A stretch of 64,000 bases of DNA from an uncultured virus (IMG/VR IMGVR_UViG_3300042319_001462) (IMGVR_UViG_3300042319_001462:1-64000), one strand, 5' to 3'; positions 1 through 14,614 are shown, counted from the first letter of the stretch. The notes: a model not told the origin generated them from the sequence alone. Made by a program: numbers and translations.

Positions 1-19
1 ACTCCTCTGCTTTCCGCCA
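1..19 (+). tRNA. 3' fragment of a tRNA cut by the window edge (identity unknown)
   Basis: ACTCCTCTGCTTTCCGCCA: end of a T-arm, acceptor strand and CCA, directly upstream of the tRNA array. Confidence 0.6.
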
Positions 20-26
20 AGATTGT

Positions 27-100
27 TCGGGTATAGTGTAATGGTAACACTACAGACTTTGACTCTGTCATTCTAGGTTCGAGCCCTAGTACCCGTGCCA
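27..100 (+). tRNA. tRNA-Gln(UUG)
   Basis: Cloverleaf; anticodon arm ACAGA-CTTTGAC-TCTGT; TTCGAGC T-loop; encoded CCA. Confidence 0.93.
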
Positions 101-108
101 AATTGAAT

Positions 109-182
109 AGCTCTGTAGTTAAATGGAATAACAGTCGGCTGATAACCGGCAGTCCTGGGATCGTTACCCGGTGGAGCTACCA
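109..182 (+). tRNA. tRNA-Ile(GAU), variant T-loop ATCGTTA
   Basis: Acceptor AGCTCTG/TGGAGCT; anticodon arm GTCGG-CTGATAA-CCGGC; CCA. Confidence 0.9.
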
Positions 183-1064
183 GAAACGTCTGCTGAATTT
201 TAATAAGTTTTCTTTACCAGAAATGACTTTGCCCAATGGATAGCTACCATGTGTATCATTGGGAGATTGTCCGAGCCAGGCAGCAAATAAAGGACTGTCA
301 AATAGGTTGTCCCTACCTTGGTCAAGATCAATTGCGATACCGCCACTGATTGTAGGCGGTGGACGTATGTCAAATTGTGCAGGGTCATCATGATCTGCAA
401 ATGCAGTTATAAAGTCTTTTCCCAGTAGATCTTTTTTGATCCACACATCATACCCCGACAATCTGAGATGCTGTTGCATTTCGTCAGGGATTGCAACAGC
501 TGATCCATCTAGAAAAACGTCAACATCTTGGTATTTAGATGACTCAAAAACAAACTCTACTGTTTGTACTTGTCGCAAGAATTCTTGTTTGTGTGGTGTT
601 ATTACATATTCTTCAAGGTAATGAATGCTTTGATTTAACACATTGATGTTGTACATGAATTCATCGTTGGTATAGGGTACAGGGTTAAATTCTTCCTGCC
701 CGTTGTGATGCCATCGATTTCCAAATTCTGTAGCTACTACTGCATATCTGTGTAATCGATTGAGCAATTGTTGTGTGCTCAAATCCAATCTACTCAATTG
801 ATCTTTGGTTACAATTTCCGGTAACGGGCATAGGTAACTGCTGGAGTTAATTGTTTTGATCACGTTCAAAATGCGATCAATTAGTGTGTCAACAGTTTCG
901 TGGCTGCAGGGCTGATAATTGGGCCAGGGCACGTGTCTAGGTGTTAGGCTGTAACAATCAACCATTTGATCATAATGAGTTTTCCAGAAGTGAACAAACT
1001 CAGTGTCAAGTAGTTCGACCAGGACCTGACCGTGCTTGGTCGAAAGTTGTATTTGATTGGTCAT
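177..1064 (-). CDS. hypothetical protein, probable paralogue of 29692..30780
   Basis: Long ORF; start reassigned to ATG 1064, which lies 5 nt after TATAAGTA; shares LNxLHRY...LNxxxHxxE motifs with 29692..30780. Confidence 0.75.
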   Translation of the reverse strand: MTNQIQLSTKHGQVLVELLDTEFVHFWKTHYDQMVDCYSLTPRHVPWPNYQPCSHETVDTLIDRILNVIKTINSSSYLCPLPEIVTKDQLSRLDLSTQQLLNRLHRYAVVATEFGNRWHHNGQEEFNPVPYTNDEFMYNINVLNQSIHYLEEYVITPHKQEFLRQVQTVEFVFESSKYQDVDVFLDGSAVAIPDEMQQHLRLSGYDVWIKKDLLGKDFITAFADHDDPAQFDIRPPPTISGGIAIDLDQGRDNLFDSPLFAAWLGQSPNDTHGSYPLGKVISGKENLLKFSRRFW

Positions 1065-1120
1065 GCCTATACTTATAGGGGCGGCCCCGGTAGTGTTGTG
1101 AAAATACAACAAAAATTCAC

Positions 1121-1149
1121 TTGACCGGTAAACGTATTTTTGCTACAAT
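1121..1149 (+). promoter_or_regulatory. sigma70-type promoter P1 of the tRNA operon
   Basis: TTGACC-17 bp-TACAAT. Confidence 0.75.
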
Positions 1150-1217
1150 AGAAACAAGTTAAGAAATTAACTGATGTTGCAAAAACCCTAGAAGTTGTAG
1201 GGACTTTGCAAAACAGA

Positions 1218-1246
1218 TTGACTGGTATTGCACATCGTGTTATACT
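1218..1246 (+). promoter_or_regulatory. sigma70-type promoter P2 of the tRNA operon
   Basis: TTGACT-17 bp-TATACT. Confidence 0.75.
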
Positions 1247-1251
1247 AGAGA

Positions 1252-1284
1252 CTAGTTAGAAATTAACTAGATGTTCTTTAAAAA
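1252..1284 (+). promoter_or_regulatory. boxB-like hairpin plus boxA antitermination element
   Basis: CTAGTTA-GAAAT-TAACTAG hairpin followed by TGTTCTTTAAAAA, matching the boxA consensus GYTCTTTAANA. Confidence 0.6.
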
Positions 1285-1317
1285 GTCGAGTTTTCTTGTA
1301 GTAACCCGCAAGGGTTG

Positions 1318-1535
1318 CTATATTAAAATGTATTAAAGGTTACCTACACCGTTAGGAACTTTGTGCGAGGACAGTGGGGCCGCCCACGCTCAATAGTCAG
1401 AGTTCATGAAGCCGAGCAGTAATGCTCAGAAAAGCGGCGGAGCATGTAGGCAGTAATGACCGTGCAGGCCTATACGAGACGGTCGTATAGGTAGACATAG
1501 ATGCACAATGGTTCCTTTAGTATTTTTTAATATAG
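1318..1535 (+). ncRNA. candidate structured ncRNA A
   Basis: 22-bp terminal stem 1318-1339/1514-1535 encloses nested helices (CCTACA/TGTAGG, GAACTTT/AGAGTTC, GTGGG/CCCAC, GAGCA-GTAA-TGCTC, CCTATACGA/TCGTATAGG, GTGCA/TGCAC); no credible ORF. Confidence 0.6.
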
Positions 1536-1537
1536 TT

Positions 1538-1613
1538 GGTCTTAAAGTGTTCATGGACGCACGACGGCTTGTCACGCCGTAAGAGTGGGGATCGTTACCC
1601 CCTAAGACCGCCA
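1538..1613 (+). tRNA. tRNA-Asp(GUC), atypical (A8/U14, C15/G48, A54/U58)
   Basis: Acceptor GGTCTTA/TAAGACC; anticodon arm ACGGC-TTGTCAC-GCCGT; CCA. Confidence 0.9.
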
Positions 1614-1616
1614 AGT

Positions 1617-1826
1617 TTTGAGAGTGTCAGCAAGTGAAGTCACGTTATGCAGTATTCTTCGAAGGTACTGAGTAATAGAAGGCAAGCGGGTTCGACTCCC
1701 GGCTGATCGGAAGATCGGTGTAGCATGGTTACCACGCTGGATGAATCCCAAGTGACGTACCGAACCCCGTCCGGACTTGTTAAATCGGGTGAATGGTGCC
1801 TATAACAGGGTGGCACTACTCTCAAA
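1617..1826 (+). ncRNA. candidate structured ncRNA B
   Basis: Closing stem TTTGAGAGTG/TACTCTCAAA; internal TTCG- and GGAA-capped hairpins and a T-arm-like GGGTTCGACTCCC. Confidence 0.6.
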
Positions 1827-1835
1827 TTCATTTTT

Positions 1836-1895
1836 GAAACTGCATCGCCTGGATACTTCCCTCATTGAGGCACTAGGTCCTGCAACAGCAGTTTC
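1836..1895 (+). ncRNA. candidate small structured RNA C
   Basis: GAAACTGC/GCAGTTTC closing stem; internal CCTGG/CTAGG and CCTC/GAGG stems. Confidence 0.35.
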
Positions 1896-1954
1896 TCTTT
1901 TTAACACGGCCCTGTTTGGTTGCTTGACTGGACTACTTCAGGGTTTTTCTTTAC

Positions 1955-2029
1955 GCTGGGTTCGTCTATCGGTTAGGACACAAGCCTTTCACGTTTGTAA
2001 GACGGGTTCGATTCCCGTACCCAGTACCA
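1955..2029 (+). tRNA. tRNA-Glu(UUC)
   Basis: Cloverleaf; CAAGC-CTTTCAC-GTTTG; CCA. Confidence 0.93.
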
Positions 2030-2033
2030 CTTT

Positions 2034-2122
2034 GGAGATGCGGCTACGATGGTGGAGTGGCCCCGGACTGTAAATCCGGTACTTAAGAAACGCAATAGGT
2101 TCGAATCCTATCATCTCCACCA
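2034..2122 (+). tRNA. tRNA-Tyr(GUA)
   Basis: CCGGA-CTGTAAA-TCCGG; long variable arm; CCA. Confidence 0.92.
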
Positions 2123-2126
2123 GAAC

Positions 2127-2340
2127 GTTCCGGGTGTCTCCGGATAGTGTGACCCACACGATGAGAAGTACTGTGACAAGTACGGGTGGTAGTCTTCGAA
2201 CCCAAAGGCCGCTAGCAATGCGATAACGGTCCCTGTCGGGAAGCGGGTGGAAGGTACGTGTGATGAAAAACTAATTGGTGAGTGAAAACTTGCTGACCAA
2301 ATTTCTGATGTACTACAATTACCGCCGGGGGATGCAGAGC
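2127..2340 (+). ncRNA. candidate structured ncRNA D
   Basis: Fills the gap between tRNA-Tyr and tRNA-Cys; 5' and 3' ends are complementary (TCTCCGG/CCGGGGG); several nested helices; no ORF. Confidence 0.55.
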
Positions 2341-2345
2341 AATAT

Positions 2346-2422
2346 GTAGGTGTGTCGCTGAATGGTTAGGCCGCGGATTGCAAATCCGTTTTATGCAAGT
2401 TCGATCCTTGTCACCTACTCCA
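2346..2422 (+). tRNA. tRNA-Cys(GCA)
   Basis: GCGGA-TTGCAAA-TCCGT; U73 discriminator; CCA. Confidence 0.92.
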
Positions 2423-2431
2423 AATTTTTAT

Positions 2432-2507
2432 TCCGCAGTAGCTCAGTTGGTAGAGTAGAAGACTGTTAATCTTTTGGTCCCTGGTTCGAGCCCAGGCTGT
2501 GGAGCCA
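2432..2507 (+). tRNA. tRNA-Asn(GUU) copy 1 (canonical)
   Basis: GAAGA-CTGTTAA-TCTTT; CCA. Confidence 0.94.
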
Positions 2508-2512
2508 ATTTT

Positions 2513-2536
2513 ATTTGCTATTTGCAAATAGCAAAT
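2513..2536. repeat. 24-bp perfect palindrome in a tRNA spacer
   Basis: ATTTGCTATTTGCAAATAGCAAAT is its own reverse complement. Confidence 0.85.
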
Positions 2537-2610
2537 GCGTGGTTAGTTTAATGGTAGAACCAGACGTTGCCAACGTTTAAGCAAGAGTTCGATTCTCTTA
2601 CCCCGCACCA
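2537..2610 (+). tRNA. tRNA-Gly(GCC)
   Basis: AGACG-TTGCCAA-CGTTT; CCA. Confidence 0.9.
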
Positions 2611-2618
2611 GTTTTATT

Positions 2619-2692
2619 GCTCTCATAGTATAAAGGCATTACACTACATTGGTAATGTAGCAACCCAGGATCGTTACCTGGTGAGAGCACCA
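2619..2692 (+). tRNA. tRNA-Thr(GGU), variant T-loop ATCGTTA
   Basis: CTACA-TTGGTAA-TGTAG; acceptor GCTCTCA/TGAGAGC; CCA. Confidence 0.9.
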
Positions 2693-2697
2693 GTTTT

Positions 2698-2772
2698 TGG
2701 CCTTTGGTGAAATGGATATCATCCTTGTCTTCGAAACAAGGGGTGGGAGTTCGATCCTCTCAAGGCCAGCCA
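2698..2772 (+). tRNA. tRNA-Arg(UCG)
   Basis: CTTGT-CTTCGAA-ACAAG; CCA. Confidence 0.9.
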
Positions 2773-2785
2773 TTTTGTAAGTTTT

Positions 2786-2875
2786 GGAACGGTCCTATAA
2801 TGGTATTAGAGCAGATTGCTAATCTGTCGCTCGGCGTAATCCGGGTTCTCGGTTCGAGTCCGAGTCGTTCCGCCA
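2786..2875 (+). tRNA. tRNA-Ser(GCU)
   Basis: GCAGA-TTGCTAA-TCTGT; long variable arm; G73; CCA. Confidence 0.92.
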
Positions 2876-2884
2876 AAATTTTAT

Positions 2885-2963
2885 TCCGCAGAACCCGAGC
2901 ATGGTGCATGGGCTTGACTGTTAATCAATGATTAGCTGGGATCGTTACCCAGATGCGGAGCCA
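2885..2963 (+). tRNA. tRNA-Asn(GUU) copy 2, atypical D-arm and ATCGTTA T-loop
   Basis: TTGA-CTGTTAA-TCAA; acceptor TCCGCA/TGCGGA; CCA. Confidence 0.8.
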
Positions 2964-3048
2964 TTATAGAAACACATACAGATCCGCCCGATAGTAAGGG
3001 AGATAGCGACTAACGTTGAAGGACTGTTTAAGTGTGTTTCTATAATGG
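2961..3048 (+). ncRNA. stem-closed spacer RNA E
   Basis: 17-bp stem CCATTATAGAAACACAT/GTGTGTTTCTATAATGG enclosing about 54 nt with ACAG-TCC/GGA-CTGT pairing. Confidence 0.5.
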
Positions 3049-3121
3049 GGGCAGTAGAGGGCTACGGCGGATCCTTGCAAGATTCGTGTCTAGATCGGTT
3101 CGATACCGACGGTCTCCACCA
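3047..3121 (+). tRNA. tRNA-Ala(UGC), non-canonical D-arm
   Basis: GGATC-CTTGCAA-GATTC; G3:U70 alanine identity pair; A73; CCA. Confidence 0.75.
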
Positions 3122-3128
3122 AGTTTAT

Positions 3129-3204
3129 CTCTCTAAAGCGTTATCTGGTTGCGTACACGGTTTGGGGCCGTGTGGTCAAGGTTCGAATCCTTGTAGGGAG
3201 ACCA
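3129..3204 (+). tRNA. tRNA-Pro(UGG) copy 1 (A8/U14)
   Basis: CACGG-TTTGGGG-CCGTG; CCA. Confidence 0.9.
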
Positions 3205-3210
3205 AATACT

Positions 3211-3285
3211 CCGGCGTTCGTTCAACGGATAGGACATGATTCTTCTAAAGTCATTATAGGGGTTCGATTCCTCTACGCCGGGCCA
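3211..3285 (+). tRNA. tRNA-Arg(UCU)
   Basis: TGATT-CTTCTAA-AGTCA; CCA. Confidence 0.92.
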
Positions 3286-4263
3286 TTATGAACATTGAGA
3301 CAAACAGGTTGGATGTACTGTCTTGGCGCTGGACAGCGATGTTGCTAGATTATGCACAAAGAAGTCACTTGTTAATATGTCAGCAATGTTGTGCTGATTG
3401 ATATCAATTGAATCCACATGCTGTATAATGCGCTGCCACAACTGTGCAGATATATCGCGTTGCCAAGACAAGCCACTGGTCATGCAACAAGGAATCACAT
3501 GCCCTTTGTGGTTTATGTAAATTCTACCACTGTTGATCCAGGAACAAGATGGTTTGGTAAATTGTTGTTGTTTGACTTTGTCAAGCGCCACAATATAATC
3601 CTTGGTACGAGTAGAATCAGCTGTGTCACTCATTTCAATATCGTGTGAGTACTCACCGTTGATCTTTACCGGCCAAATTGGATTATCCCAAAAGTTTCTA
3701 TTGGTTGATTGTGTTTGAAAATCAGCAAACCCCATGCTAGCGGCAAGTTCTTGTGCTTGCGCCACTTGGTGCTGATTGTGTTTGAACACAAGAAATTTCC
3801 ACGTGGCACGACCGCCTGCATTGATGTATGCCCGGGCGTTGCGCATGATTTTATCAAAATCAGCATTGATTCTGTATGTTGCATTGGTGTCAGCTAATCC
3901 GTCAATTGAAAAAACAACTGTCAAGTTGGGAATGGTTGCAAGATTTGCCCACCAGGTTGTGGATCGCATGCTACCGTTGGTGTATGCAACAATTGACTCC
4001 ACACTTGAGCAGTGCCTAAAAAAGCTTTCGGCACGTGGATGCATCATGATATCACCGTAGTCGCCTTCAAACACAATGTGTTTGAGGTTTGGCAACTGAG
4101 ACAGTACAAAGTTTTGTTCAAATGCTTCAAAGTCCAAATGGTCAGGCACTAGAAACTTGTTTAAGAATCCTTCCTGATCGTATCTAGGACACTGTGGGCA
4201 ATGCAAATTGCAATGCGATGTAGCTTCTACTACAACTCCGGTCACTTGTTCAGCAACAATCAT
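3286..4263 (-). CDS. radical SAM protein with C-terminal SPASM/twitch-like cysteines
   Basis: CNLHCPQC motif, TNGS, FSIDG, C-terminal C...PCC...CxxxC; start moved to ATG 4263 (GGAG SD, coupled to the upstream stop). Confidence 0.88.
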   Translation of the reverse strand: MIVAEQVTGVVVEATSHCNLHCPQCPRYDQEGFLNKFLVPDHLDFEAFEQNFVLSQLPNLKHIVFEGDYGDIMMHPRAESFFRHCSSVESIVAYTNGSMRSTTWWANLATIPNLTVVFSIDGLADTNATYRINADFDKIMRNARAYINAGGRATWKFLVFKHNQHQVAQAQELAASMGFADFQTQSTNRNFWDNPIWPVKINGEYSHDIEMSDTADSTRTKDYIVALDKVKQQQFTKPSCSWINSGRIYINHKGHVIPCCMTSGLSWQRDISAQLWQRIIQHVDSIDINQHNIADILTSDFFVHNLATSLSSAKTVHPTCLSQCS

Positions 4264-4694
4264 TAACAATTCTCCAATAACCAAATGTGAATTGGAGTAT
4301 AAAAATCAATTGTTACTGTGCCGTTGCAGCCCATGATTCCGTAGAATTCGTCTGTAAACTCAGGCTGTGTTCCGTTGAAATCGTGAGTGTAGCATTTTTT
4401 ACCTTTTGCATAGAGATCAGTAATATCTATGCCATCAAATGTTATATGTTCAACGAGTACTGTGCAGTCCGAGACTATGAGGTTGTTGCTGTCAACCACT
4501 GTGTGCGTTTGATTTTTGCCATGCATGGTCACAGTTAACACATGGTCTTGTGAAATATCACTTTCATCAAGTTCATGTTCAAAAGTCCATTTTTGGTCAC
4601 AAACCAAGGTAGACAACAAATGACCATTTAAGGATACATCAATTTTGATGTCTTGACAAACTTGGGTGGGATTGATTGTTAGGGAAATTAGCAT
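4263..4694 (-). CDS. hypothetical protein
   Basis: ORF coupled to the radical SAM gene; CATAAGTA motif 6 nt upstream of the ATG. Confidence 0.75.
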   Translation of the reverse strand: MLISLTINPTQVCQDIKIDVSLNGHLLSTLVCDQKWTFEHELDESDISQDHVLTVTMHGKNQTHTVVDSNNLIVSDCTVLVEHITFDGIDITDLYAKGKKCYTHDFNGTQPEFTDEFYGIMGCNGTVTIDFYTPIHIWLLENC

Positions 4695-4772
4695 CAAGAA
4701 TACTTATGCTGTAGCCGAGCCCATGCTGAGTTTAATGTTATTGTAATACAAAAATAGATATATAAGGATATT

Positions 4773-5207
4773 ATGTTACATCTAATTAAATCAGCCGCTG
4801 ACTCATTTCTTGAGTTTATTGCACAAGATCCTGTGCGCCCACACATACCAACTTCTTCAAGAGTTGGTGAAAACAGAGACATTTTTGTTGCTCGCAAAAA
4901 TGACTCAACTGCCCGCGCAATCACTTGCGTGAGCTACCAGTCAATTGTGCCCGAAAGTGAAAGCCAATTGTTTACTCCTTCCCAAGAGCCAATTGTTGTG
5001 GTTTTCTACACCATTTGGAGCTACGAAGCAGGAGCAGGACGAGACTTGATCTTTGAAGCAAGAGACTGGATTCAAAAAAACAAGCCAGGTATTCAACGGT
5101 TTGTTACACTGAGTCCGCCCACTGAGATGGCCCGTAGGTTCCATATCAAAAATGGTGCCAAGGTTTACCGTACCAACACAGACACAGTAAACTACGAGTA
5201 CCTGTAG
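4773..5207 (+). CDS. hypothetical phage protein, possibly GNAT-like
   Basis: AAGGA SD; FYTIWSY-GAGRDLI and TLSP...ARRFH.KNGA segments resemble acetyltransferase motifs. Confidence 0.7.
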   Translation: MLHLIKSAADSFLEFIAQDPVRPHIPTSSRVGENRDIFVARKNDSTARAITCVSYQSIVPESESQLFTPSQEPIVVVFYTIWSYEAGAGRDLIFEARDWIQKNKPGIQRFVTLSPPTEMARRFHIKNGAKVYRTNTDTVNYEYL

Positions 5208-5213
5208 TTTTGT

Positions 5214-5291
5214 TGGGGATTCGCCAAGTTGGTCCAAGGCACCGGATTTTGATTCCGGCATTCCTAGGTTCGAATCCTAGATCCTCAGCCA
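5214..5291 (+). tRNA. tRNA-Gln(UUG) copy 2
   Basis: CCGGA-TTTTGAT-TCCGG; CCA. Confidence 0.94.
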
Positions 5292-5299
5292 CAAATGAC

Positions 5300-5328
5300 T
5301 TGACAACAAATGACATTTGTCGTATAAT
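5300..5328 (+). promoter_or_regulatory. sigma70-type promoter
   Basis: TTGACA-17 bp-TATAAT. Confidence 0.85.
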
Positions 5329-5437
5329 ATGTTTTTACTAAGGAAAATGACATGAAACGTTCAGCGAAACGATAGTGTCATCCTAGACCCCCGTATGGTC
5401 CTGGATGGCACGTAAAAGACAATTCTTTACGATCCAT

Positions 5438-5514
5438 CCCTTCAAGATGTTACTGGTTAGCATACCGGACTCTTAATCCGAGAAGTCTGAGTTCGAATCT
5501 CAGTGGAGGGACCA
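5438..5514 (+). tRNA. tRNA-Lys(CUU) (A8/U14)
   Basis: CGGA-CTCTTAA-TCCG; CCA. Confidence 0.88.
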
Positions 5515-5517
5515 TAT

Positions 5518-5595
5518 GGGGGTATAGTGTTAACGGTTTAGCACAGCAGACTTTTAATCTGCCAGGTCAGGGTTCGAATCCCTGTGCCCCTACCA
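5518..5595 (+). tRNA. tRNA-Lys(UUU)
   Basis: GCAGA-CTTTTAA-TCTGC; CCA. Confidence 0.93.
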
Positions 5596-5696
5596 TATAA
5601 AAACACATTAACCAGTATCGTAGCAGTACTGCTGGTGCTACGGGATTTAGTGGGTTCGATCCCCACAGCCAGGTTCGTTAGTGTGTTTCTATATGG
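5593..5696 (+). ncRNA. stem-closed spacer RNA F with T-arm-like hairpin
   Basis: Stem CCATATAAAAACACATTA/TAGTGTGTTTCTATATGG; inside are CGTAGCA/TGCTACG and GTGGG-TTCGATC-CCCAC. Confidence 0.55.
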
Positions 5697-5769
5697 TGAT
5701 ATGACGTAGATGGATGCGTACCGCCCTCATAAGGCGAGGAGAGTGGATCATTCCCACTTATCACTACCA
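5695..5769 (+). tRNA. tRNA with CAU anticodon (elongator Met or Ile2), variant T-loop ATCATTC
   Basis: CGCC-CTCATAA-GGCG; acceptor GGTGATA/TATCACT; CCA; no initiator 1:72 mismatch. Confidence 0.8.
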
Positions 5770-5786
5770 GGATATATAGTAAAGAT

Positions 5787-5860
5787 GCCCTATTAGTATA
5801 ATGGTATTACACCTGTTTTGTAATCAGGTTACGGCAGTTCGATTCTGTCATGGGGCACCA
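5787..5860 (+). tRNA. tRNA-Thr(UGU)
   Basis: CCTG-TTTTGTAAT-CAGG anticodon arm; CCA. Confidence 0.9.
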
Positions 5861-5868
5861 AAAACCAA

Positions 5869-5942
5869 GCGGGGTTAGTTTAGTGGCAAAACGCTATCCT
5901 TCCAAGTTAGAGTTGCGAGTTCGATTCTCGCACCCCGCTCCA
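5869..5942 (+). tRNA. tRNA-Gly(UCC)
   Basis: CTTCCAA anticodon loop; acceptor GCGGGGT/ACCCCGC; U73; CCA. Confidence 0.9.
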
Positions 5943-5956
5943 TTCAAGGATACAAT

Positions 5957-6109
5957 ATGCCAATGTATGAAACAACTGTAAGAACACCACAAGGTGAAGA
6001 AAAGAAGCGTATCTATGCGGACACCCCGCAAGAGGCTAAACGACTTTTTGAACAACTGTATGGTGGTCCTAGAGCAGTGCCATACATTCCAAAAATTGTA
6101 GCAAGTTAA
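5957..6109 (+). CDS. small hypothetical protein (50 aa, MPMYETTVRTPQGEEKK...)
   Basis: AAGGA SD; ORF fills the gap between two tRNAs; below the ORF-track cutoff. Confidence 0.65.
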   Translation: MPMYETTVRTPQGEEKKRIYADTPQEAKRLFEQLYGGPRAVPYIPKIVAS

Positions 6110-6110
6110 T

Positions 6111-6187
6111 CGGTGTGTAGCTCAGTCTGGTAGAGCTCTGCGTTTGGGACGCAGTGGTCGCATGTTCGAATCGTGTCACACCGACCA
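6111..6187 (+). tRNA. tRNA-Pro(UGG) copy 2
   Basis: CTGCG-TTTGGGA-CGCAG; CCA. Confidence 0.94.
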
Positions 6188-6193
6188 ATTTAT

Positions 6194-6269
6194 ATCGCTG
6201 TAGTTCAATGGATAAGAATACGATGCTACGAACGTCGGGATAGGGGTTCGATTCCCTTCAGCGGTACCA
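6194..6269 (+). tRNA. tRNA-Arg(ACG)
   Basis: CGATG-CTACGAA-CGTCG; CCA. Confidence 0.93.
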
Positions 6270-6293
6270 ATCATAACTGGCAAAACAAATGCA

Positions 6294-6322
6294 TTGACAA
6301 CAAATTGCAGTTAGTGTATAAT
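6294..6322 (+). promoter_or_regulatory. sigma70-type promoter
   Basis: TTGACA-17 bp-TATAAT. Confidence 0.85.
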
Positions 6323-6361
6323 TTTACATGCAGAGACAGTAATTTAAACCAAGGAATTGAA

Positions 6362-6895
6362 ATGATTACTTTTAAAGAATTCATGGAAGTAGTGAATTAT
6401 CGTGTTACCGAGGGTAGCGACTACGGCTGGAGTTGTTTTGGTGATGATGCATATAGCCTGAGTGCGTGGAATGGTATTCACGGCGCCGGCGGCTGGAGTG
6501 CCAATATTGTGTTTGATACAAAGACTCAGGAGGTCTACGAAGTTGATGTTTGTGACTACACTAACAATCGTGCATATCGTATTATCAATTCTGAGTACAC
6601 TCAAGCACATGCCGATGAATCCGTTGACCGCGGAGAATTAGGTAATCAAGCCTGGGACGATGTTGAGTATATCAATCTTGAAGTTGACGATGAGTGGATC
6701 CAAAAGGGTCTAGCTATTGTAGCTGGCGAGGTTTACGATACTCGAGTACAAATGCCAGTTGATTTTTCCGACGAGGATTTGCTAAAATACATGAAGGCGG
6801 CGCATGACTTGGATATCACGTTTAACCAATATGTTGAGCAGGCTCTGAGGTTGGCAATTGAAAAACACAAAGATGGATCATGGCATGAACAGTGA
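6362..6895 (+). CDS. hypothetical phage protein (possible ribbon-helix-helix-like C-terminus)
   Basis: Start reassigned to ATG 6362 (AAGGA SD, downstream of the promoter; the track start overlaps tRNAs). Confidence 0.75.
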   Translation: MITFKEFMEVVNYRVTEGSDYGWSCFGDDAYSLSAWNGIHGAGGWSANIVFDTKTQEVYEVDVCDYTNNRAYRIINSEYTQAHADESVDRGELGNQAWDDVEYINLEVDDEWIQKGLAIVAGEVYDTRVQMPVDFSDEDLLKYMKAAHDLDITFNQYVEQALRLAIEKHKDGSWHEQ

Positions 6896-7193
6896 GTCAG
6901 ATAAATTCAAACGTTCGAAGCGTATTCAAAAAGATGAAAATGCTGTAAACAAGCAAGTCAAGATTGCCAAAGCACATGGGTTAACTGACAAAGATAAAGC
7001 CATACAAGAGCCTCATCGATTAGCAAAACATCACGCCATGGATTGTGGTAACCCTGAATGTTATTTGTGTGGTAATCCTAGGAAAACACACAAAGATAAA
7101 CTAACAACTCAAGAAAAGAGATTGTTTCAAGATGTAGAAAAATCTACAGATCGACATAGCAATGGTATTTTGCCGCCAACAGAGTTGGAATAA
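6885..7193 (+). CDS. hypothetical basic protein with Cys/His cluster
   Basis: HH..DCGNPECYLCGN motif; overlaps the upstream stop. Confidence 0.75.
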   Translation: MNSESDKFKRSKRIQKDENAVNKQVKIAKAHGLTDKDKAIQEPHRLAKHHAMDCGNPECYLCGNPRKTHKDKLTTQEKRLFQDVEKSTDRHSNGILPPTELE

Positions 7194-7200
7194 GTTCTAT

Positions 7201-7276
7201 GGTGTCACTAGTGTAGAGGTTCGCACACTAGTCTGTGAAACTGGTAGTACGGGATCGTTCCCCGTGTGACACCCCA
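7201..7276 (+). tRNA. tRNA-His(GUG), variant T-loop ATCGTTC
   Basis: G-1:C73; CTAGT-CTGTGAA-ACTGG; CCA. Confidence 0.9.
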
Positions 7277-7287
7277 GTTGAGATTTT

Positions 7288-7362
7288 GCCTGGATAGCTC
7301 AGGGGTAGAGCGTCTCCTTTACACGGAGAGGGTCCGCGGTTCGAAACCGTGTCCAGGTACCA
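7288..7362 (+). tRNA. tRNA-Val(UAC)
   Basis: TCTCC-TTTACAC-GGAGA; CCA. Confidence 0.94.
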
Positions 7363-7368
7363 TTTATT

Positions 7369-7443
7369 GCCCTAGTAGCTCAGTGGTAGAGCGCCGTCTT
7401 GATAAGGCGTAGGTCCGTGGATCGTTCCCACGCTAGGGTACCA
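7369..7443 (+). tRNA. tRNA-Ile(GAU) copy 2, variant T-loop ATCGTTC
   Basis: CGTC-TTGATAA-GGCG; CCA. Confidence 0.9.
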
Positions 7444-7460
7444 ATCAAAAGGAGTGCACC

Positions 7461-7961
7461 ATGCCGTGGATTCAAAACGTAGCCAAAAGCGACATTGCCC
7501 GGGGATTTCATATCAATCCCGGTGAGAACGCTATGCTGATTCAAATTGTGGATCCACCTGGTGACTTTCCCACACCCTTGTACAAGTTCAAGCAAGTTCA
7601 TCAATTTGAATTCTTAGACATTGAAGAAAATGATTTTGCATTAGACGAAGCCATGCGGTGCAGTCAAGAGCAGGCCAACGAGCTTGTTCGACTATTGCAA
7701 CATGCAAAGGACAATCACATGAATGTGGTTGTTCACTGTGTGGCGGGTGTTTGCCGTAGTGGTGCAGTGTGCGAAGTTGGTGTCATGCTGGGCTTTGATG
7801 ATACTGAGGTGTTTCGCAGTCCCAACTTGTTGGTCAAACATCGCATGATGAAGGCACTGGGTTGGACTTACGATGAACAAGAAGAAATCAAACATCGTCC
7901 ATATCTGTACCAACCGGATGAAAACGATCCACGCGGTACTGACACTCACGAAAGCAGTTGA
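7461..7961 (+). CDS. dual-specificity/tyrosine protein phosphatase family
   Basis: HCVAGVCRS = HCxxGxxRS signature; AGGAG SD. Confidence 0.88.
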   Translation: MPWIQNVAKSDIARGFHINPGENAMLIQIVDPPGDFPTPLYKFKQVHQFEFLDIEENDFALDEAMRCSQEQANELVRLLQHAKDNHMNVVVHCVAGVCRSGAVCEVGVMLGFDDTEVFRSPNLLVKHRMMKALGWTYDEQEEIKHRPYLYQPDENDPRGTDTHESS

Positions 7962-7970
7962 TGAATATTT

Positions 7971-8044
7971 AGGTCATTAGCTCAAAGGTAGAGCGGTGCA
8001 TTGACATTGCACATACAGCGGATCGTTACCGTTATGACCTACCA
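7971..8044 (+). tRNA. tRNA-Val(GAC), variant T-loop ATCGTTA
   Basis: GTGCA-TTGACAT-TGCAC; CCA. Confidence 0.9.
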
Positions 8045-8049
8045 GTTTT

Positions 8050-8180
8050 GCAAACATTAGACGTGTAGGGGTATACCTACCATTGGCGCTTGATACAATC
8101 CAGTGGACCAGGTGATCGGGTGCAAGACCCATAGAGATGCTGATATCTCACACACGCCCTAGCGAAATCAGTATGTTTGC
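8050..8180 (+). ncRNA. candidate structured ncRNA G
   Basis: GCAAACAT/ATGTTTGC closing stem followed by a T-run; multi-way junction (CGTGT/ACACG, GTAGG/CCTAC, CCATTGG/CCAGTGG, GGGT-GCAAG-ACCC, GAGAT/ATCTC). Confidence 0.5.
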
Positions 8181-8190
8181 TTTTTTATGG

Positions 8191-8219
8191 TTGACCAAAA
8201 ATCAACAATGTAGTATAAT
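8191..8219 (+). promoter_or_regulatory. sigma70-type promoter
   Basis: TTGACC-17 bp-TATAAT. Confidence 0.8.
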
Positions 8220-8225
8220 TGATGC

Positions 8226-8474
8226 ATGTACAAAGTAATCAGCAAAAATAACCTAACATTAAACGTATGTGCAACTTTGGACGAGGCCATGAGCTTTGCC
8301 AAAACTGTTGGAGTATTTGTAACCATTGCAGGAGCAGACTTCGAAGTATGCGGGGTGTTTGGTGTTGACGCTGTCAAAGACGGTGTGTGTCCAGACGGTG
8401 TTGCTTACGACTGGGACAAATCAAGCCGAATTGGCCGCGTTAAAAAAGAAAGGATTAGCGATGTCGTGCTTTAG
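8226..8474 (+). CDS. hypothetical protein (probably leaderless)
   Basis: ATG 6 nt after the -10 box. Confidence 0.65.
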   Translation: MYKVISKNNLTLNVCATLDEAMSFAKTVGVFVTIAGADFEVCGVFGVDAVKDGVCPDGVAYDWDKSSRIGRVKKERISDVVL

Positions 8475-8889
8475 TGTGTTAGTTAATAAAAAGATAAACG
8501 GAATGTTCATAGGCAACGATGCATGGACATTGGTATTTCGCGACATCAACGGAAATCACTATCGATTTGACACTGCAAATGATTGTTGCAATTCTGTGTG
8601 GTTCAACCATGTTAATGGTGTAGACTCTGTACTGGGCAGTGGCAACTCTTTTGATATCCTGCGTGGTGCAACAGTGTTGGCTGTAGAGTCAAAAGATTTT
8701 GAAAGACAAGATCTCGAAGATGAACACGAGTGCGTCGATGACGCATTTGTGACCATCCGCACAGATCGTGGATATATAGATTTAGAAGTTCGTAACAGCC
8801 ACAATGGTTATTACGGAGGATCCATCAGTTACAACCAAGACGGACTAGCTGATGTGGAAGATTTGAAGCCTGTTACCGCAGACTTTTAG
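8461..8889 (+). CDS. hypothetical phage protein
   Basis: Start reassigned to ATG 8461 (AAGGA SD); DCC...W and RNSHNGYYGG motifs. Confidence 0.75.
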   Translation: MSCFSVLVNKKINGMFIGNDAWTLVFRDINGNHYRFDTANDCCNSVWFNHVNGVDSVLGSGNSFDILRGATVLAVESKDFERQDLEDEHECVDDAFVTIRTDRGYIDLEVRNSHNGYYGGSISYNQDGLADVEDLKPVTADF

Positions 8890-8891
8890 AC

Positions 8892-8973
8892 GCCCCGATG
8901 GTGGAATGGTAGACACGGTAGACTCAAAATCTACTGCTTCGGCGTCCCGGTTCGAGTCCGGGTTGGGGTACCA
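8892..8973 (+). tRNA. tRNA-Leu(CAA)
   Basis: GTAGA-CTCAAAA-TCTAC; variable arm; CCA. Confidence 0.94.
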
Positions 8974-8980
8974 GATTAAT

Positions 8981-9064
8981 GCGAGTGTGGTGTAATGGTA
9001 GCCACAGGAGACTTAAAATCTCCCGTCTTAGGGCGTGCCGGTTCGACTCCGGCCACTCGCACCA
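8981..9064 (+). tRNA. tRNA-Leu(UAA)
   Basis: GGAGA-CTTAAAA-TCTCC; variable arm; CCA. Confidence 0.94.
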
Positions 9065-9083
9065 GTATAAGTAAGATAACACA

Positions 9084-9716
9084 ATGTCGACACTTAAAGT
9101 AGCTTTTTTAAATTTGCCTGCGCCGCCGACAGCGTTGGCAACCCAGTTGATCAACTGTTGCCAACAAATCCCCTTGTTTGAAGAACACAGGATCTGGGTC
9201 GACAATTTTCATCGCAACGAAATCCCTGTGGCTGCACACGAATACGGCACCAAAGACACTGTACTGTCTGCCGAAATACAAAATCAAATTAGAGCAGTTT
9301 ATCAGAAATTTTTTCCAAACACAGTTGTATCCGCAGTGGTTGGTAAAATTAAAAATGTATTGTCGGTTCCCAGTCAAAGTCCACCACATTGTGATCGTGC
9401 AAGATATGTTGCCATAAACTATTTGCTAGAGCTTGGCGGTCCGGATGTTCGCACAGTATTTTACAAAGAATCGCGACCCAATCCCGATCTTTCCAGTGCT
9501 GCCAACATCTACCACAAGGATGTGACTGTGGATTTTAAAACTGTGATTCCGTTACATCAATGGCATGCTTATGATGTGCAACACTATCACAGCGTGGAGA
9601 ATATCATAACTGAACGCTATTTGTTTTCTCTACTGCTTGATACCAACCCCACGTTTGCCGACTTTAGGCAACGTTATAAAAATTTAATAGATACCGACCA
9701 CTCCATACAGACATAA
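9084..9716 (+). CDS. putative 2OG-Fe(II) oxygenase-like protein
   Basis: PHCD (HxD)...HSV...RYLFS (distal His and Arg) pattern. Confidence 0.6.
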   Translation: MSTLKVAFLNLPAPPTALATQLINCCQQIPLFEEHRIWVDNFHRNEIPVAAHEYGTKDTVLSAEIQNQIRAVYQKFFPNTVVSAVVGKIKNVLSVPSQSPPHCDRARYVAINYLLELGGPDVRTVFYKESRPNPDLSSAANIYHKDVTVDFKTVIPLHQWHAYDVQHYHSVENIITERYLFSLLLDTNPTFADFRQRYKNLIDTDHSIQT

Positions 9717-9733
9717 CACACAAAGGAAATTGT

Positions 9734-10207
9734 ATGCCAACTATAGATATAAACCAAGTCAAGGATTATATTGCCCAACAAGGCCCAAACACACGTATCT
9801 ACCTAGGAGCAGACTCGGAGCGCCATCGTATCAATGGAATATGGTGGGGTGTTTACACTGTGTGCATTGTAGTACATATCGACGGATGCCACGGTTGCAA
9901 AATCTTTGGAGAAATCACTCGTGAACGTGACTACGACCAACGAGCCAATCGTCCCAGCATGCGTTTGATGAATGAAGTATACAAGGTTAGCGAAATGTTT
10001 CAGAAACTGAGTACTGTACTTGAAGATCGACCAGTTGAAGTTCACTTGGATATTAACCCAGATGAAATGCACGGTAGTTCATGTGTGGTCAGTCAAGCCA
10101 TTGGCTACATTCGCGGCACCTGCAATGTTATTCCGTTGGTGAAACCGCATGCCTGGGCTGCCTCACATGCAGCCGACAAGTTCCCAAGCCTGCAACGAGT
10201 GGCTTGA
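9734..10207 (+). CDS. RNase H-like (YkuK-type) protein
   Basis: IYLGADS, RLMNEV, EVHLDIN, AASHAAD motifs. Confidence 0.8.
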   Translation: MPTIDINQVKDYIAQQGPNTRIYLGADSERHRINGIWWGVYTVCIVVHIDGCHGCKIFGEITRERDYDQRANRPSMRLMNEVYKVSEMFQKLSTVLEDRPVEVHLDINPDEMHGSSCVVSQAIGYIRGTCNVIPLVKPHAWAASHAADKFPSLQRVA

Positions 10208-10219
10208 TAAGTATCAGCT

Positions 10220-11797
10220 ATGCTAGACAACCACAAACCAAATGTTGTAATCCTTACTGATCGCACAGATGTGTTGTTGCTGTCTAAGCCACTGGGCTCT
10301 CACAAAGTTGCATGCGAGCTTAGAGCGGCTGGGTACGAAGTGCTAGTGATAAATCACTTGCATGTGTTTTCAATTGAAGAAATCAAGAACATACTCCAAC
10401 AAACAGTTAATCAACAAACATTGTTTGTGGGAGTTAATTCTTTCTTTTATCAGTCAATAGAAAATCCCATTCAACTTGACACCCCGGACGTGCTGGATCA
10501 CGAACGCGGTGGACAGAAGTATACCGAGCGAGAGCCCGGTGCGTTTCTACCACATGGTATCAAGTACAACCGTGAACTACGTGAGCTAGTTTCCAATATC
10601 AACCCGCATTGTCAATGGGTGCTTGGTGGACCAGATGCACAAGACTTATCTTACATACGAGATTACGATTATGCTGTGATTGGTTACGGCGATGTTGCCA
10701 TAGTAAATCTAGCTGATCATTTGCACAAAGGCACTCCACTTGAAAAGTCTCGGCGCAGTTTGTTTGGAACCACGCTAGTGGATGACCGAGCGGCCGAATC
10801 ATACGACTTTAACAGCAGTGTTATGAAATATCAACCTCAGGATGCTATCTTGCCCGGGGAAACATTGGTAATCGAGATCAGTCGAGGTTGTATATTTCGA
10901 TGTGGATTTTGCAGTTATCCCTTGAACGGCAAGAAAAAATTAGATCACATCAAGCATGAAGAAACTCTGCGCAACGAACTGATTGATAATTATCAGCAAT
11001 TCGGAGTCACAAGGTACTTGTTTTCCGATGACACATTTAATGACAGTCAAGAAAAAGTAGAGATGATACATCGTGTGTCTAAATCACTGCCGTTTGATTT
11101 AGAGTTTTGGGCATTTGCTAGATTAGATCTGCTGGCAGCTCACCCTCATACCATTGACTTGTTGTTTGACAGTGGATGTCGTGGATGTTTTTTCGGTATT
11201 GAAACACTTGACCCTGCCACTGCCAAGTTGATTGGTAAAGGTGGATCAAGACAAAAGCTGATTGATACCTTGCGCATTTGCAAAGAAAAATACGGTGATC
11301 GTATTCTGTTGCATGGTACATTTATCTTTGGATTGCCTGGAGAAGAAATTGCCAGCATGGAACGTACTGCACAGGCTTTGCTGAACAAAGATATACCACT
11401 AGACTCCTGGGTGGTGCTTCCATTTTATCTAAGTCAACAAAATCTAGCCTACACAAGTGAGTTCGATCGTTACCCAGAAAAATACGGATACGAAATCACT
11501 GGAACACAAGACAACAATCGGTACTTGTGGAAAAATCAATTTACCACCTTTGAAGATTGCAAACGCATGGCTGACGAGTTAATGGCTCAGGGCATTCGTG
11601 ACGGTAATAGAAAAGTAAGCAATTTGGCCGCATTTGAAATTGCCGGGCTTGGGTTTGATTTGGACTTTGCTCTGAACAAACCAATGAAAGATTTTGATTG
11701 GCACAGTGTTGATGTTAGAAAACAACAGCGAGCAATTGAATACAAGGAGTTGTTGCATCGCCGACTGGGTATCATGCCGTTGACAACAAATGAATAA
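10220..11797 (+). CDS. B12-binding-domain-type radical SAM protein
   Basis: SRGCIFRCGFC, DDTFN, FFGIETL, FIFGLPGE; N-terminal region with LGGP and GYGD. Confidence 0.85.
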   Translation: MLDNHKPNVVILTDRTDVLLLSKPLGSHKVACELRAAGYEVLVINHLHVFSIEEIKNILQQTVNQQTLFVGVNSFFYQSIENPIQLDTPDVLDHERGGQKYTEREPGAFLPHGIKYNRELRELVSNINPHCQWVLGGPDAQDLSYIRDYDYAVIGYGDVAIVNLADHLHKGTPLEKSRRSLFGTTLVDDRAAESYDFNSSVMKYQPQDAILPGETLVIEISRGCIFRCGFCSYPLNGKKKLDHIKHEETLRNELIDNYQQFGVTRYLFSDDTFNDSQEKVEMIHRVSKSLPFDLEFWAFARLDLLAAHPHTIDLLFDSGCRGCFFGIETLDPATAKLIGKGGSRQKLIDTLRICKEKYGDRILLHGTFIFGLPGEEIASMERTAQALLNKDIPLDSWVVLPFYLSQQNLAYTSEFDRYPEKYGYEITGTQDNNRYLWKNQFTTFEDCKRMADELMAQGIRDGNRKVSNLAAFEIAGLGFDLDFALNKPMKDFDWHSVDVRKQQRAIEYKELLHRRLGIMPLTTNE

Positions 11798-11808
11798 TTT
11801 GCTATAAT
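11780..11808 (+). promoter_or_regulatory. sigma70-type promoter of rpoZ
   Basis: TTGACA-17 bp-TATAAT. Confidence 0.85.
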
Positions 11809-11838
11809 ACACACATAGTTTAACAAAAGGAAAATTTT

Positions 11839-12102
11839 ATGGCCAGATACACCAGTGAATCAGCAGTAAGTGCAGTGGGCAACCGGTACGACCTGGTGCT
11901 GATTGCATCCAGGCGTGCTAGAGAACTTTCTGTGGGGTATCAACCAACTGTTGTCAGCAATTCGGGCAATCTTGTCAAGGCTCTGGAAGAAATTGAACAA
12001 GGCAAAATTGGGCGTGAGCTTTTGCTAAAATCCACGCATGTGGAAGATCGAAGAACACGCAAAGAACGACACAGTGCCACACCTGGCCTTCCCGGTCGAT
12101 AA
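11839..12102 (+). CDS. rpoZ: RNA polymerase omega subunit homologue
   Basis: MARYT...GNRYDLVLIASRRAREL...ALEEIEQG matches the omega pattern. Confidence 0.85.
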   Translation: MARYTSESAVSAVGNRYDLVLIASRRARELSVGYQPTVVSNSGNLVKALEEIEQGKIGRELLLKSTHVEDRRTRKERHSATPGLPGR

Positions 12103-12133
12103 TGATTCTGTTAACCTATTCCGGAGTTGATAG

Positions 12134-12310
12134 ATGAACGAACGAATTAAACAACTAATGAATCAAGCAGGCACTGATACTAGTGGCAAATGGATGGGCG
12201 TGGACCATGCTGAAAAGTTCGCCGAGTTGATTGTGAAGAAATGTGCTGAACTTTGCTTGGCAGACTACGATGCAGACATTATACTGGCACATTTCGGAGT
12301 TGAAGAATAA
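12134..12310 (+). CDS. small hypothetical phage protein (MNERIKQL...HFGVEE, 58 aa)
   Basis: GGAG SD; open frame; below the track cutoff. Confidence 0.7.
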   Translation: MNERIKQLMNQAGTDTSGKWMGVDHAEKFAELIVKKCAELCLADYDADIILAHFGVEE

Positions 12311-12319
12311 ATAAAAGTT

Positions 12320-12640
12320 AAGACTGTATGAAGTAGACAGAAAAGGATTCAAGACGCGGGGGCAGTGCCCGCCAGGTCCACCATAAGGAGATTACGTGAG
12401 ATTACCATCATTGTTAGCAATATTAATTTTCATAGTAATAGTAGCAATCTTTTTATGATGGGCCTGACACAGGATCGATTGGGTCAAGAGTATTGAAATG
12501 GACAGTCCGGCAATGTAGAAGCCGTAGGATTGGGGTAACTCGGTCGAAGAAGCAAAACAAAGTAAACGCAAACGACTCACAGTTCGCATTAGCTGCCTAA
12601 ACTCAGCTTAGGGTAAGACATACCTCGTAACAGAAACTCT
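12320..12640 (+). ncRNA. ssrA: circularly permuted two-piece tmRNA (acceptor piece ends at 12383, coding piece starts at 12460, tag ANDSQFALAA at 12568-12600)
   Basis: T-arm GCGGG-GGCAGTG-CCCGC plus CAGGTCC-A-CCA lies upstream of the 5' strand GGGCCTG...GGATCGA; G3:U70 pair; tag ends in LAA-stop; outer ends approximate. Confidence 0.92.
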
Positions 12641-12641
12641 A

Positions 12642-12666
12642 GAAGCCCACTTCGGTGGGCTTTTTC
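12642..12666 (+). terminator. intrinsic terminator after the tmRNA
   Basis: AAGCCCAC-TTCG-GTGGGCTT followed by a T-run. Confidence 0.9.
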
Positions 12667-12838
12667 TTGATTAAATTAATTGACAGAATAAATATAGTCA
12701 GCAACGCCGGTATCAGACCGACGTCGGATCTCCAAGACGCTTGACATATCGATGTCTTTACTGTATTATTAATACAGAACGCCTACCGTGTGTGGACAAA
12801 ACGTTCACTAGCCCTAAATCACAACAAAGGAAAACACG

Positions 12839-13897
12839 ATGAAAACTCGCTCACTTAAAAATTACGACTCCACAGTTGGAGTAGAAGTATACGACATTGA
12901 CCTAAATTCAGATGATGAAATATTTGAACTTGGTAGGCTTGTTGCCGGACAATGCATTGTATTTGTCAATCAAAAAATTCCCACAGAAAGATTGTTCAAT
13001 GTAATGATGCAATGGGGAGACCCTAGCCGAGCAATCATGCATAACTACGTGCTTGAAAGTAAACTGCAAGGTCGGCATTGGCGCGAACTGTTGCTCAACT
13101 TGGGATTTGTTGCCAAGAATGTAAAAGACCTATCAGCGGCAGTGACCCTGGTCAGCTACAAGAATGATGATCACGGGCGTCCTACTGGATTGTTTACCAA
13201 TGGTGAACTAGACTGGCACAGTGACCAATGTTCATCCGATGATGCACAACGCATTATTGGCCTGCAGAGTGTAAGCGACACGGCCAACAGCCAAACCACA
13301 TTTTTGTGCACACACGATGCATATGAGTCTCTCAGCAGTGATATGCGTAGCATGGTCAAAGAGCTTGTGGTTCGACACAAATGGACTGACAATCTCATGG
13401 CCCCTGGACTGAACAAAACACAGAGCTTGATTCTGCGTTACAACATGACTCCGTTGGATGGCATGGAGACTCGGCTGTACCGAGAAACTGTTACAGGACT
13501 GTCGGGTATGAAAATCCCCAGTCATACATTTGACGGTTTTGTTGGCATGAGTCAAGAAGAAAGTCAGCGTGTGATGTCTGAATTGAAACGTCATGTGTAT
13601 CAGGATCGCTATGTATACACCCAAAATTGGGCTGACGGACAAATTGTGTTCATGGATCAAGAAATTACACTGCATGCTCGACCAACCAATGTGCAAGATG
13701 GAGACAAACGCACCATGGCTCGTGTGGTGTCTTATCTAAACAAGGTATACCCGCATGTGCAACCTGCAACCACGGTGAGATACAACGGGGAAATTTACAC
13801 ACACGACGAATTTGCCAAGTTGGTTGATGCAGATCGCAAAGACTATTTTGAAAAAACTCAACAGAGTTCTTACACTGTTTATGACCCAACACATTAA
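12839..13897 (+). CDS. TauD/TfdA-family 2OG-Fe(II) dioxygenase
   Basis: WHSD (HxD), W..G..V..D....LHAR...R.M.R. Confidence 0.88.
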   Translation: MKTRSLKNYDSTVGVEVYDIDLNSDDEIFELGRLVAGQCIVFVNQKIPTERLFNVMMQWGDPSRAIMHNYVLESKLQGRHWRELLLNLGFVAKNVKDLSAAVTLVSYKNDDHGRPTGLFTNGELDWHSDQCSSDDAQRIIGLQSVSDTANSQTTFLCTHDAYESLSSDMRSMVKELVVRHKWTDNLMAPGLNKTQSLILRYNMTPLDGMETRLYRETVTGLSGMKIPSHTFDGFVGMSQEESQRVMSELKRHVYQDRYVYTQNWADGQIVFMDQEITLHARPTNVQDGDKRTMARVVSYLNKVYPHVQPATTVRYNGEIYTHDEFAKLVDADRKDYFEKTQQSSYTVYDPTH

Positions 13898-14609: not shown

Positions 14610-14614
14610 CTATC

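Follow-up and report, generated by a model that had tools for sequence, protein, structure and literature searches.

Two cassettes in a viral tRNA array

The stretch analysed here (the window, 64,000 nt) comprises the initial 64 kb of a 71,328-base record of an uncultured virus, IMGVR_UViG_3300042319_001462 (CheckV completeness 21%), whose AAA ATPase has its nearest match, at 51% identity, among PA5oct-group jumbo phages of Pseudomonas. An array of transfer RNA (tRNA) genes, 25 by ARAGORN, occupies positions 1-9100 on the + strand, and within it lie two short elements, here called cassettes E (2961-3048) and F (5593-5696), each consisting of an interior (the cargo) closed by two complementary arms. 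The closing stem of E has 17 pairs in a row, one of them G.U (z -6.6; 0/200 shuffles equally stable), and F has the same arms with a single A.C mismatch (z -5.1), while the two interiors belong to different cargo clusters. In both, the stem opens on the CCA of the upstream tRNA, and its final UGG corresponds to U-1, G1 and G2 of the downstream tRNA (Table 1). The first-pass annotation of this DNA had described nearly identical arms around unrelated interiors, and a stem that takes in both the upstream CCA and the TGG spanning the next tRNA start; the z-scores and separate cargo clusters bear out the former, the coordinates and folds the latter.

A third, diverged member (1317-1536) has a promoter-like site upstream (1218-1246) and tRNA-Asp downstream. 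Nine of its 11 distinct homologues keep both arms, one ends before the right arm and one is armless. Most tRNA junctions of the window carry no stem of this type in a sequence-blind stem search.

Table 1. Positions of the cassettes and associated features in the window.
Feature	Position	Strand	Basis and remarks
Third, diverged member, ~180 nt cargo	1317..1536	+	23-bp stem; 8/10 RNase III rules; predicted cuts 1324/1325, 1530/1531
tRNA-Asn(GTT), 5' of E	2885..2963	+	Relaxed ARAGORN (absent from default output) and cloverleaf fold; start approximate; CCA 2961-2963 is the E stem base
E left arm	2961..2977	+	Predicted RNase III cut 2968/2969; one-base-lower register scores equal
E cargo: three-way junction, two hairpins with kissing loops	2978..3031	+	38-sequence alignment and metagenome hits
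E right arm	3032..3048	+	Predicted cut 3042/3043; final two G are G1-G2 of next tRNA
tRNA-Ala(TGC), 3' of E	3047..3121	+	Relaxed ARAGORN, fold
Sigma-70 promoter candidate	5300..5328	+	12/12 consensus match only; precedes leader, tRNA-Lys pair, F and later tRNAs
tRNA-Lys(TTT), 5' of F	5518..5595	+	Rfam tRNA, 61 bits; anticodon from fold
F left arm, identical to family consensus	5593..5609	+	Predicted cut 5599/5600; 9/10 RNase III rules
F cargo: hairpin with pseudoknot-forming loop, tRNA-like T arm	5610..5679	+	7 homologues
F right arm	5680..5696	+	Predicted cut 5691/5692; final two G begin next tRNA
CAT-anticodon tRNA, 3' of F	5695..5769	+	Rfam, 41.5 bits; relaxed ARAGORN
Permuted tmRNA intervening segment, outside the cassette family	12382..12457	+	Rfam, stem comparison, RNase III scoring

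One carrier stem with many cargos

IMG/VR was searched with two arm-pattern scans and with cargo-based scans, and all counts are lower bounds. Loci lacking tRNAs were kept only where a cargo scan had found them, tandem cassettes were parsed shortest-first, and 55 of the 243 loci of the first parse, with neither cassette nor tRNA, were set aside as chance or unrelated matches. The finder demanded 13 of 16 pairs and thereby inflates pairing; an opposite-strand control carries no meaning for inverted repeats. The parsed set holds at least 426 cassettes, at least 322 of them distinct, in at least 251 tRNA-array loci. Their cargos, mostly 30-110 nt long, form at least 157 clusters by blastn, 102 of them singletons, with distant homologues possibly split between clusters. 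The most common docking tRNA is tRNA-Lys(TTT), behind which stand 72 of the 143 tRNA-docked cassettes with 45 cargo clusters, and conversely the E cargo stands behind at least seven tRNA types, travelling with its arms to different tRNAs. The search of related genomes thus finds conserved arms around unrelated cargos, as expected of the reusable carrier stem with swappable cargo that had been proposed from E and F.

Among the 322 distinct cassettes, 143 begin on the CCA of a called tRNA and 64 stop at a tRNA start; both are true of 48 and neither of 163. Pairing with the 5' end of the next tRNA, which the first-pass annotation had ascribed to both cassettes, therefore holds for E and F and fails as a general feature. 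Since the UGG is kept in 183 of the 258 cassettes with no called tRNA following, it is part of the arm, and the pairing with the next tRNA's start is incidental. These figures also bear on the idea that the stem brings two tRNA ends together so that they can be ligated into circular or cross-joined tRNAs. The stems of E and F do pair the CCA with G1-G2 of the tRNA that follows, but a called tRNA lies on both sides of only those 48 cassettes, and in 21 phage records we found RtcB in none and a T4-type RNA ligase 1 in one, so that ligation seems extremely improbable.

Three complete genomes carry well-matched copies in or beside their tRNA clusters, and the few weak matches elsewhere look like chance. 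They represent T4-like lineages of 160-170 kb and 350 kb, whose capsid, terminase and polymerase share 26-34% identity. In both lineages a metallophosphoesterase gene stands within or next to the tRNA arrays (L247:13313-13960 in G010; G004 near 300 kb), with 64-66% identity, and because this is far above the identity of the core genes, the gene probably travels with the arrays. GTDB gave four matches (three short tRNA-rich contigs of metagenome-assembled or uncultured genomes), which are probably phage contigs within bins. Against cultured phages, a blastn search with F matched only the tRNA ends among the 30 of 88 records listed. We found no description of this cassette family in the literature, most subscription papers lying outside our reach. 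Two catalogues of structured RNAs, PMC5737381 and PMC10690425, might hold single cargos, and no arm or E-cargo motif occurs in the seven supplementary files of PMC10690425 that were searched. The arrangement, which belongs to uncultured lake phages, is real and widespread, and apparently unpublished.

An RNA helix fitting RNase III

The arms covary at positions 5-8, 11, 14 and 16. On the tRNA strand, G.U pairs outnumber A.C mismatches by 116 to 31, in a set whose finder favours G.U, and by about 27 to 8 in the nearly unfiltered E set, which was found by cargo alone; of its 75 full-length metagenome hits, 74 pass the stem filter, and the remaining one shows, on inspection by eye, a variant stem. 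The E cargo was thus never met without the stem. The stem is conserved as an RNA helix on the tRNA strand.

This asymmetry tells against arms that are DNA-level ends of a mobile cassette (similar to miniature inverted-repeat transposable elements or attC sites) used by a recombinase, a reading otherwise suggested by the exchange of cargos at one site and the presence of one cargo at many. Within a locus, arms with different cargos do resemble each other more than they do across loci (22.1 vs 20.3 of 28; 0/2000 resamplings), yet that likeness may stem from shared ancestry or host. Tyrosine integrase and reverse transcriptase were each found in 0/21 phage records, DDE and Y1 transposase families not being searched for, and a retron RNA, with its a1/a2 inverted repeats, would likewise call for the reverse transcriptase that these records did not show. 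With no empty-site signature either, the recombination handle that had been suggested as one role of the stem receives no direct support, and we regard mobile DNA ends as very unlikely.

For ribonuclease III (RNase III), PMC1540722 gives as determinants of minimal E. coli substrates a distal box of U-A/U.G and a proximal box (pb) of G-C, W-W, A-U and a weak pair; there, a G-C at pb4 is a catalytic antideterminant that would allow binding without cleavage, and a tetraloop suffices atop the site. With this numbering we scored ten rules, six above the cut and four below, the lower four being our own extension by symmetry and the whole set possibly differing from the rules of the actual host. The score peaks with pb4 at arm position 8, at a mean of 7.95/10 over all 322 cassettes and 7.41 over the 182 that do not match the seed patterns, against at most 4.84 and 4.64, respectively, in ten other registers, and none of 1000 column-order shuffles reached 7.41 (maximum 6.87). 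The E cassettes recovered from metagenomes through their cargo alone (55) average 7.07, against at most 4.53 in other registers. Individual scores are 9/10 for F, 8/10 for the third member and 6/10 for E, the last with two registers tied.

Most details of the stem are in keeping with this register. Position 8 is the weakest pair (57% paired), and positions 6-7, the predicted overhang, are variable. Above the predicted cut stand ten conserved pairs (positions 8-17), with position 18 paired in 76% and whole stems of 18-23 bp, so that some 11 bp or more separate the cut from the top, as an RNase III substrate requires. At nine to ten pairs from the cut, the distal box shows U.G in 56% and U-A in 78% of the 182 non-seed cassettes; both occur in F and the third member, and E is without the U-A. 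The pb2 position is free of G-C/C-G, with W-W in 99% of upper and 91% of lower halves and both A-U/U-A in 55/55 E cassettes; G-C variants occur in 16/182 at pb1 and never at pb2. At pb1 and pb4 the picture is mixed: at pb1 itself, G-C is found in 68% of lower halves and 9% of upper halves, and the upper pb4 is other than G-C/C-G in 70%.

As a control we scored T7 hairpins, which we take to be the known T7 RNase III sites such as R1.1. The hairpin before gene 1.1 scores 6/6 for the upper rules where this is expected and has a mismatch at pb4; the arm consensus agrees with it at 7 of 10 upper-stem positions; three other hairpins satisfy 5/6, and one was mis-picked by the script. The T7 early-transcript sites and the cassettes share the distal U-A/U.G box, the A-U proximal pairs and a weak pair at the predicted cut. 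The T7 tops, in contrast, are small loops and the products mRNAs, whereas the cassettes have a structured top of 30-180 nt, a fully paired foot and tRNA neighbours. A search for long stems that took no account of sequence gave 29 in four tRNA arrays, of which 15 score at least 8 (a few of the 15 being alternative pairings of the same arms), against 0/90 elsewhere, and an array stem with an unrelated upper arm still satisfies 9/10 rules (G010 86284-86381, 92383-92506). No stem in the tRNA regions of XacN1 or Phosso scores above 6. The other suggested role of the stem, as a processing signal, thus gains support from register score and T7 likeness, and can be made specific as a putative RNase III site with predicted cuts.

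The intervening segment of the transfer-messenger RNA (tmRNA), which had been likened to E and F in geometry, was considered as a family member and rejected. Its 12-bp stem (12382-12393/12446-12457) is present as a continuation of the tmRNA's own acceptor helix and has only its first five bases in common with the family arm. The CCA pairs upstream of the tmRNA 5' end, with G+1 remaining within its own acceptor stem, and the RNase III score of 6/10 at best is at background level, so the likeness is not borne out. The permuted tmRNA (12.3-12.6 kb; Rfam RF04321, 106 bits) is of an ordinary type, and PMC9004378 already reports two-piece tmRNAs in aquatic phages.

We favour, at a probability of roughly two in three, the reading that the stem is a stalk processed by host RNase III, by which a small structured RNA gene can be plugged as a unit into the phage tRNA operon. 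No RNase III gene was found in the 21 phage records (12 of them under 90% complete), so the host would supply the enzyme. It would cut the polycistronic transcript after arm position 7 on the 5' strand, with a 2-nt 3' overhang on the partner, and would release the cargo closed by a stem of about 10 bp (F 5600-5691, 92 nt; E 2969-3042). The remaining foot of 5-6 bp (5 bp in F, including CCA:UGG) would melt, so that the upstream tRNA would be left with a trailer of 4-5 nt for exonucleases (in F, tRNA-Lys with 4 nt) and a directly following tRNA with a leader of 3-4 nt for ribonuclease P (3 nt in F). Docking on CCA would be favoured because C-C-A with U-G-G builds the second proximal box, supplying its G-C, and we infer that this explains docking better than tRNA-to-tRNA clamping does. 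Whole stem-plus-cargo units would move between phages by ordinary recombination in the tRNA array.

Several observations weigh against the processing stalk. E, besides its low score and tied registers, has a G-C at pb4 and no distal U-A; a G-C at pb4 recurs in 20 of 55 E homologues and 49 of 182 cassettes, and the upper pb1 rule is satisfied in the mentioned 9% only. The two positions between the predicted cuts are mostly A-U/U-A here, while PMC6212723 reports an in vivo preference for G-C/C-G at them. Positions 12, 13 and 15 are near-invariant though the E. coli rules hardly constrain them, so that common descent or a second factor would also shape the arms. The borrowed rules, their symmetric lower half and the use of related sequences, which are not independent, count here as well, as do the nested folds of the cargos, which surpass those of shuffles by little (mean z -0.7; 12/148 below -2). 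The RNA-library runs (shares 0.05-0.09) represent contigs of relatives, whose ends cannot show RNA ends; one 106-base contig spans a relative of F exactly, and its ends, at repeated arms, are not RNA ends.

Cargos, comparisons and meaning

In the E cargo, four of five loop-loop pairs change on both sides over 38 sequences, with a covariation score reached by 0/500 shuffles, a score that relatedness can inflate, part of the core having been set by the search pattern; metagenome hits show 15 loop combinations, every one with 3-5 Watson-Crick pairs retained. For the loop of the F hairpin, pairing partners lie both upstream (one compensatory pair) and downstream (conservation only), and the cargo also has a T arm. 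Of the 148 cargo clusters, 17 contain T-loop arms, against 0.8 expected. In the L016 cargo a T arm is followed by a D-like arm, presumably the permuted order of Y RNAs. None of E, F and the other window elements matches an Rfam family, and no Rfam family covers the cassettes in 60 further loci among the matches listed. The 148 cargos contain no hammerhead core, and GGA (CsrA-type) motifs are not enriched in cargos (141 vs 160 expected). Some cargos recall ToxI, SAM-II, twister and signal recognition particle Alu RNAs, which is an impression of ours without tool support. The cargos look selected, and given their compact folds, conservation and exchange, the released RNAs would probably be trans-acting products such as protein decoys, tRNA-elbow mimics or aptamers.

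Much of the evidence could apply as well to a stem that is punctuation only, an RNase III site that cuts or times the tRNA precursor while the tops are passengers to be degraded. The register, the sequence-blind stems and the T7 likeness are the same for both, and the many singleton clusters (102/157) and weak mean cargo folding are what passengers would give. A tetraloop would suffice as such a top, however, going by PMC1540722, most tRNA junctions of the window do without the stem, and the E cargo keeps its three-way junction and compensatory kissing loops over the 38 sequences and moves with its arms. We thus find bare punctuation rather unlikely.

Bacterial and phage Y RNAs (YrlA), which act with Ro60, have a constant terminal helix, a variable effector domain and sometimes tRNA-like arms, and lie adjacent to tRNAs. 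The cassettes resemble them in all four respects, which raises the alternative of an uncut or slowly cut binding handle, that is, an RNase III sponge, or a dock for some other host or phage protein, carrying a variable effector domain. The G-C at pb4 in 49/182 cassettes would permit binding without cleavage (PMC1540722), the arms hold extra invariant positions, and some cargos have T arms like Y RNAs. On the other hand, the constant helix of the cassettes fits RNase III rules, and TROVE/Ro60 is found in 0/21 phage records, nine of these at least 90% complete. Rfam scans gave no cassette-covering Y RNA match, the YrlA model having sub-threshold matches on tRNAs only and none in window 1-14000, and no recognisable RNA-binding protein appears among 27 of the 40 proteins shared by the three complete genomes (PHROGs; 10 also Pfam), several of which are unnamed. 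A handle of this kind is, in our estimate, unlikely.

The processing stalk has a parallel in the 16S/23S ribosomal RNA operons, where stable RNA is framed by complementary flanks cut by RNase III and the operon also carries tRNAs. The shared feature is a stable RNA within an RNase III-cut complementary frame; the difference is that in the phage cassettes a single stalk sequence recurs with no fewer than 157 small RNAs that are unrelated and exchangeable. T4 species 1 and 2 RNAs are structured phage RNAs near tRNAs. They differ from the cassettes, as do GOLLD and ROOL RNAs (structured phage RNAs near tRNAs with function not known; PMC5737381), in being single large families with no shared carrier stem described, and the cassettes have no Rfam match. 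In this comparison the cassette stem would work like a known device, the RNase III processing stalk, and what appears new is its reuse as a modular small-RNA frame.

Directly upstream of F's tRNA-Lys unit, the stretch 5341-5523 contains a 7-codon leader (5352-5375, MKRSAKR) with a segment (5387-5402) that pairs alternatively within the leader or with the tRNA-Lys(CTT)-tRNA-Lys(TTT) junction. Among 37 distinct homologues, 34 keep the junction complement and most keep the MKR..K peptide. The arrangement looks like a ribosome-sensing switch for tRNA-Lys maturation. The motif stands ahead of 9 of the 43 Lys(TTT)-docked cassettes with enough upstream sequence. An empty-site palindrome was also considered and rejected, as it occurs only at the Lys(CTT)-Lys(TTT) junction (20/20) and is explained by the leader pairing.

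Other structured stretches in the array include an Rfam-negative non-coding element of about 210 nt between tRNA-Asp and the next tRNAs (1617-1830), which is closed by a bulged stem of its own and contains a T-loop hairpin, and a non-coding multi-hairpin stretch between tRNA-Tyr and tRNA-Cys (2124-2340) with relatives among RNA-library contigs. A hairpin after tRNA-Val (8048-8180), whose 8-bp closing stem recalls the arms, is possibly a decayed fourth member. The window further holds, at 177-1112, 3286-4284, 10220-14860 and 28120-35901, many radical SAM genes, TauD, an acyl carrier protein, an RNA polymerase omega homologue, a carbamoyltransferase and sugar-modifying genes.

Beyond the processing stalk itself, we tentatively raise the possibility that the tRNA arrays of these phages are an RNA counterpart of anti-defence islands, in which a standard RNase III frame serves to express and exchange hundreds of compact RNA effectors as a library (aptamers, tRNA-elbow mimics, protein decoys) that might target host defence or translation factors. 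The most common slot, behind tRNA-Lys(TTT) and sometimes 3' of the lysine-codon leader switch, could react to a loss of tRNA-Lys. Should the frame prove to be a signal for release by RNase III, it would give exact ends to at least 157 clusters of small structured phage RNAs that are Rfam-negative in the loci scanned, and these RNAs could be tested directly, as a library, for binding of ligands or proteins and for anti-defence activity. It would also be a natural portable frame for freeing small RNAs from one bacterial transcript, and it bears on why large phages retain non-coding stretches within their tRNA arrays.

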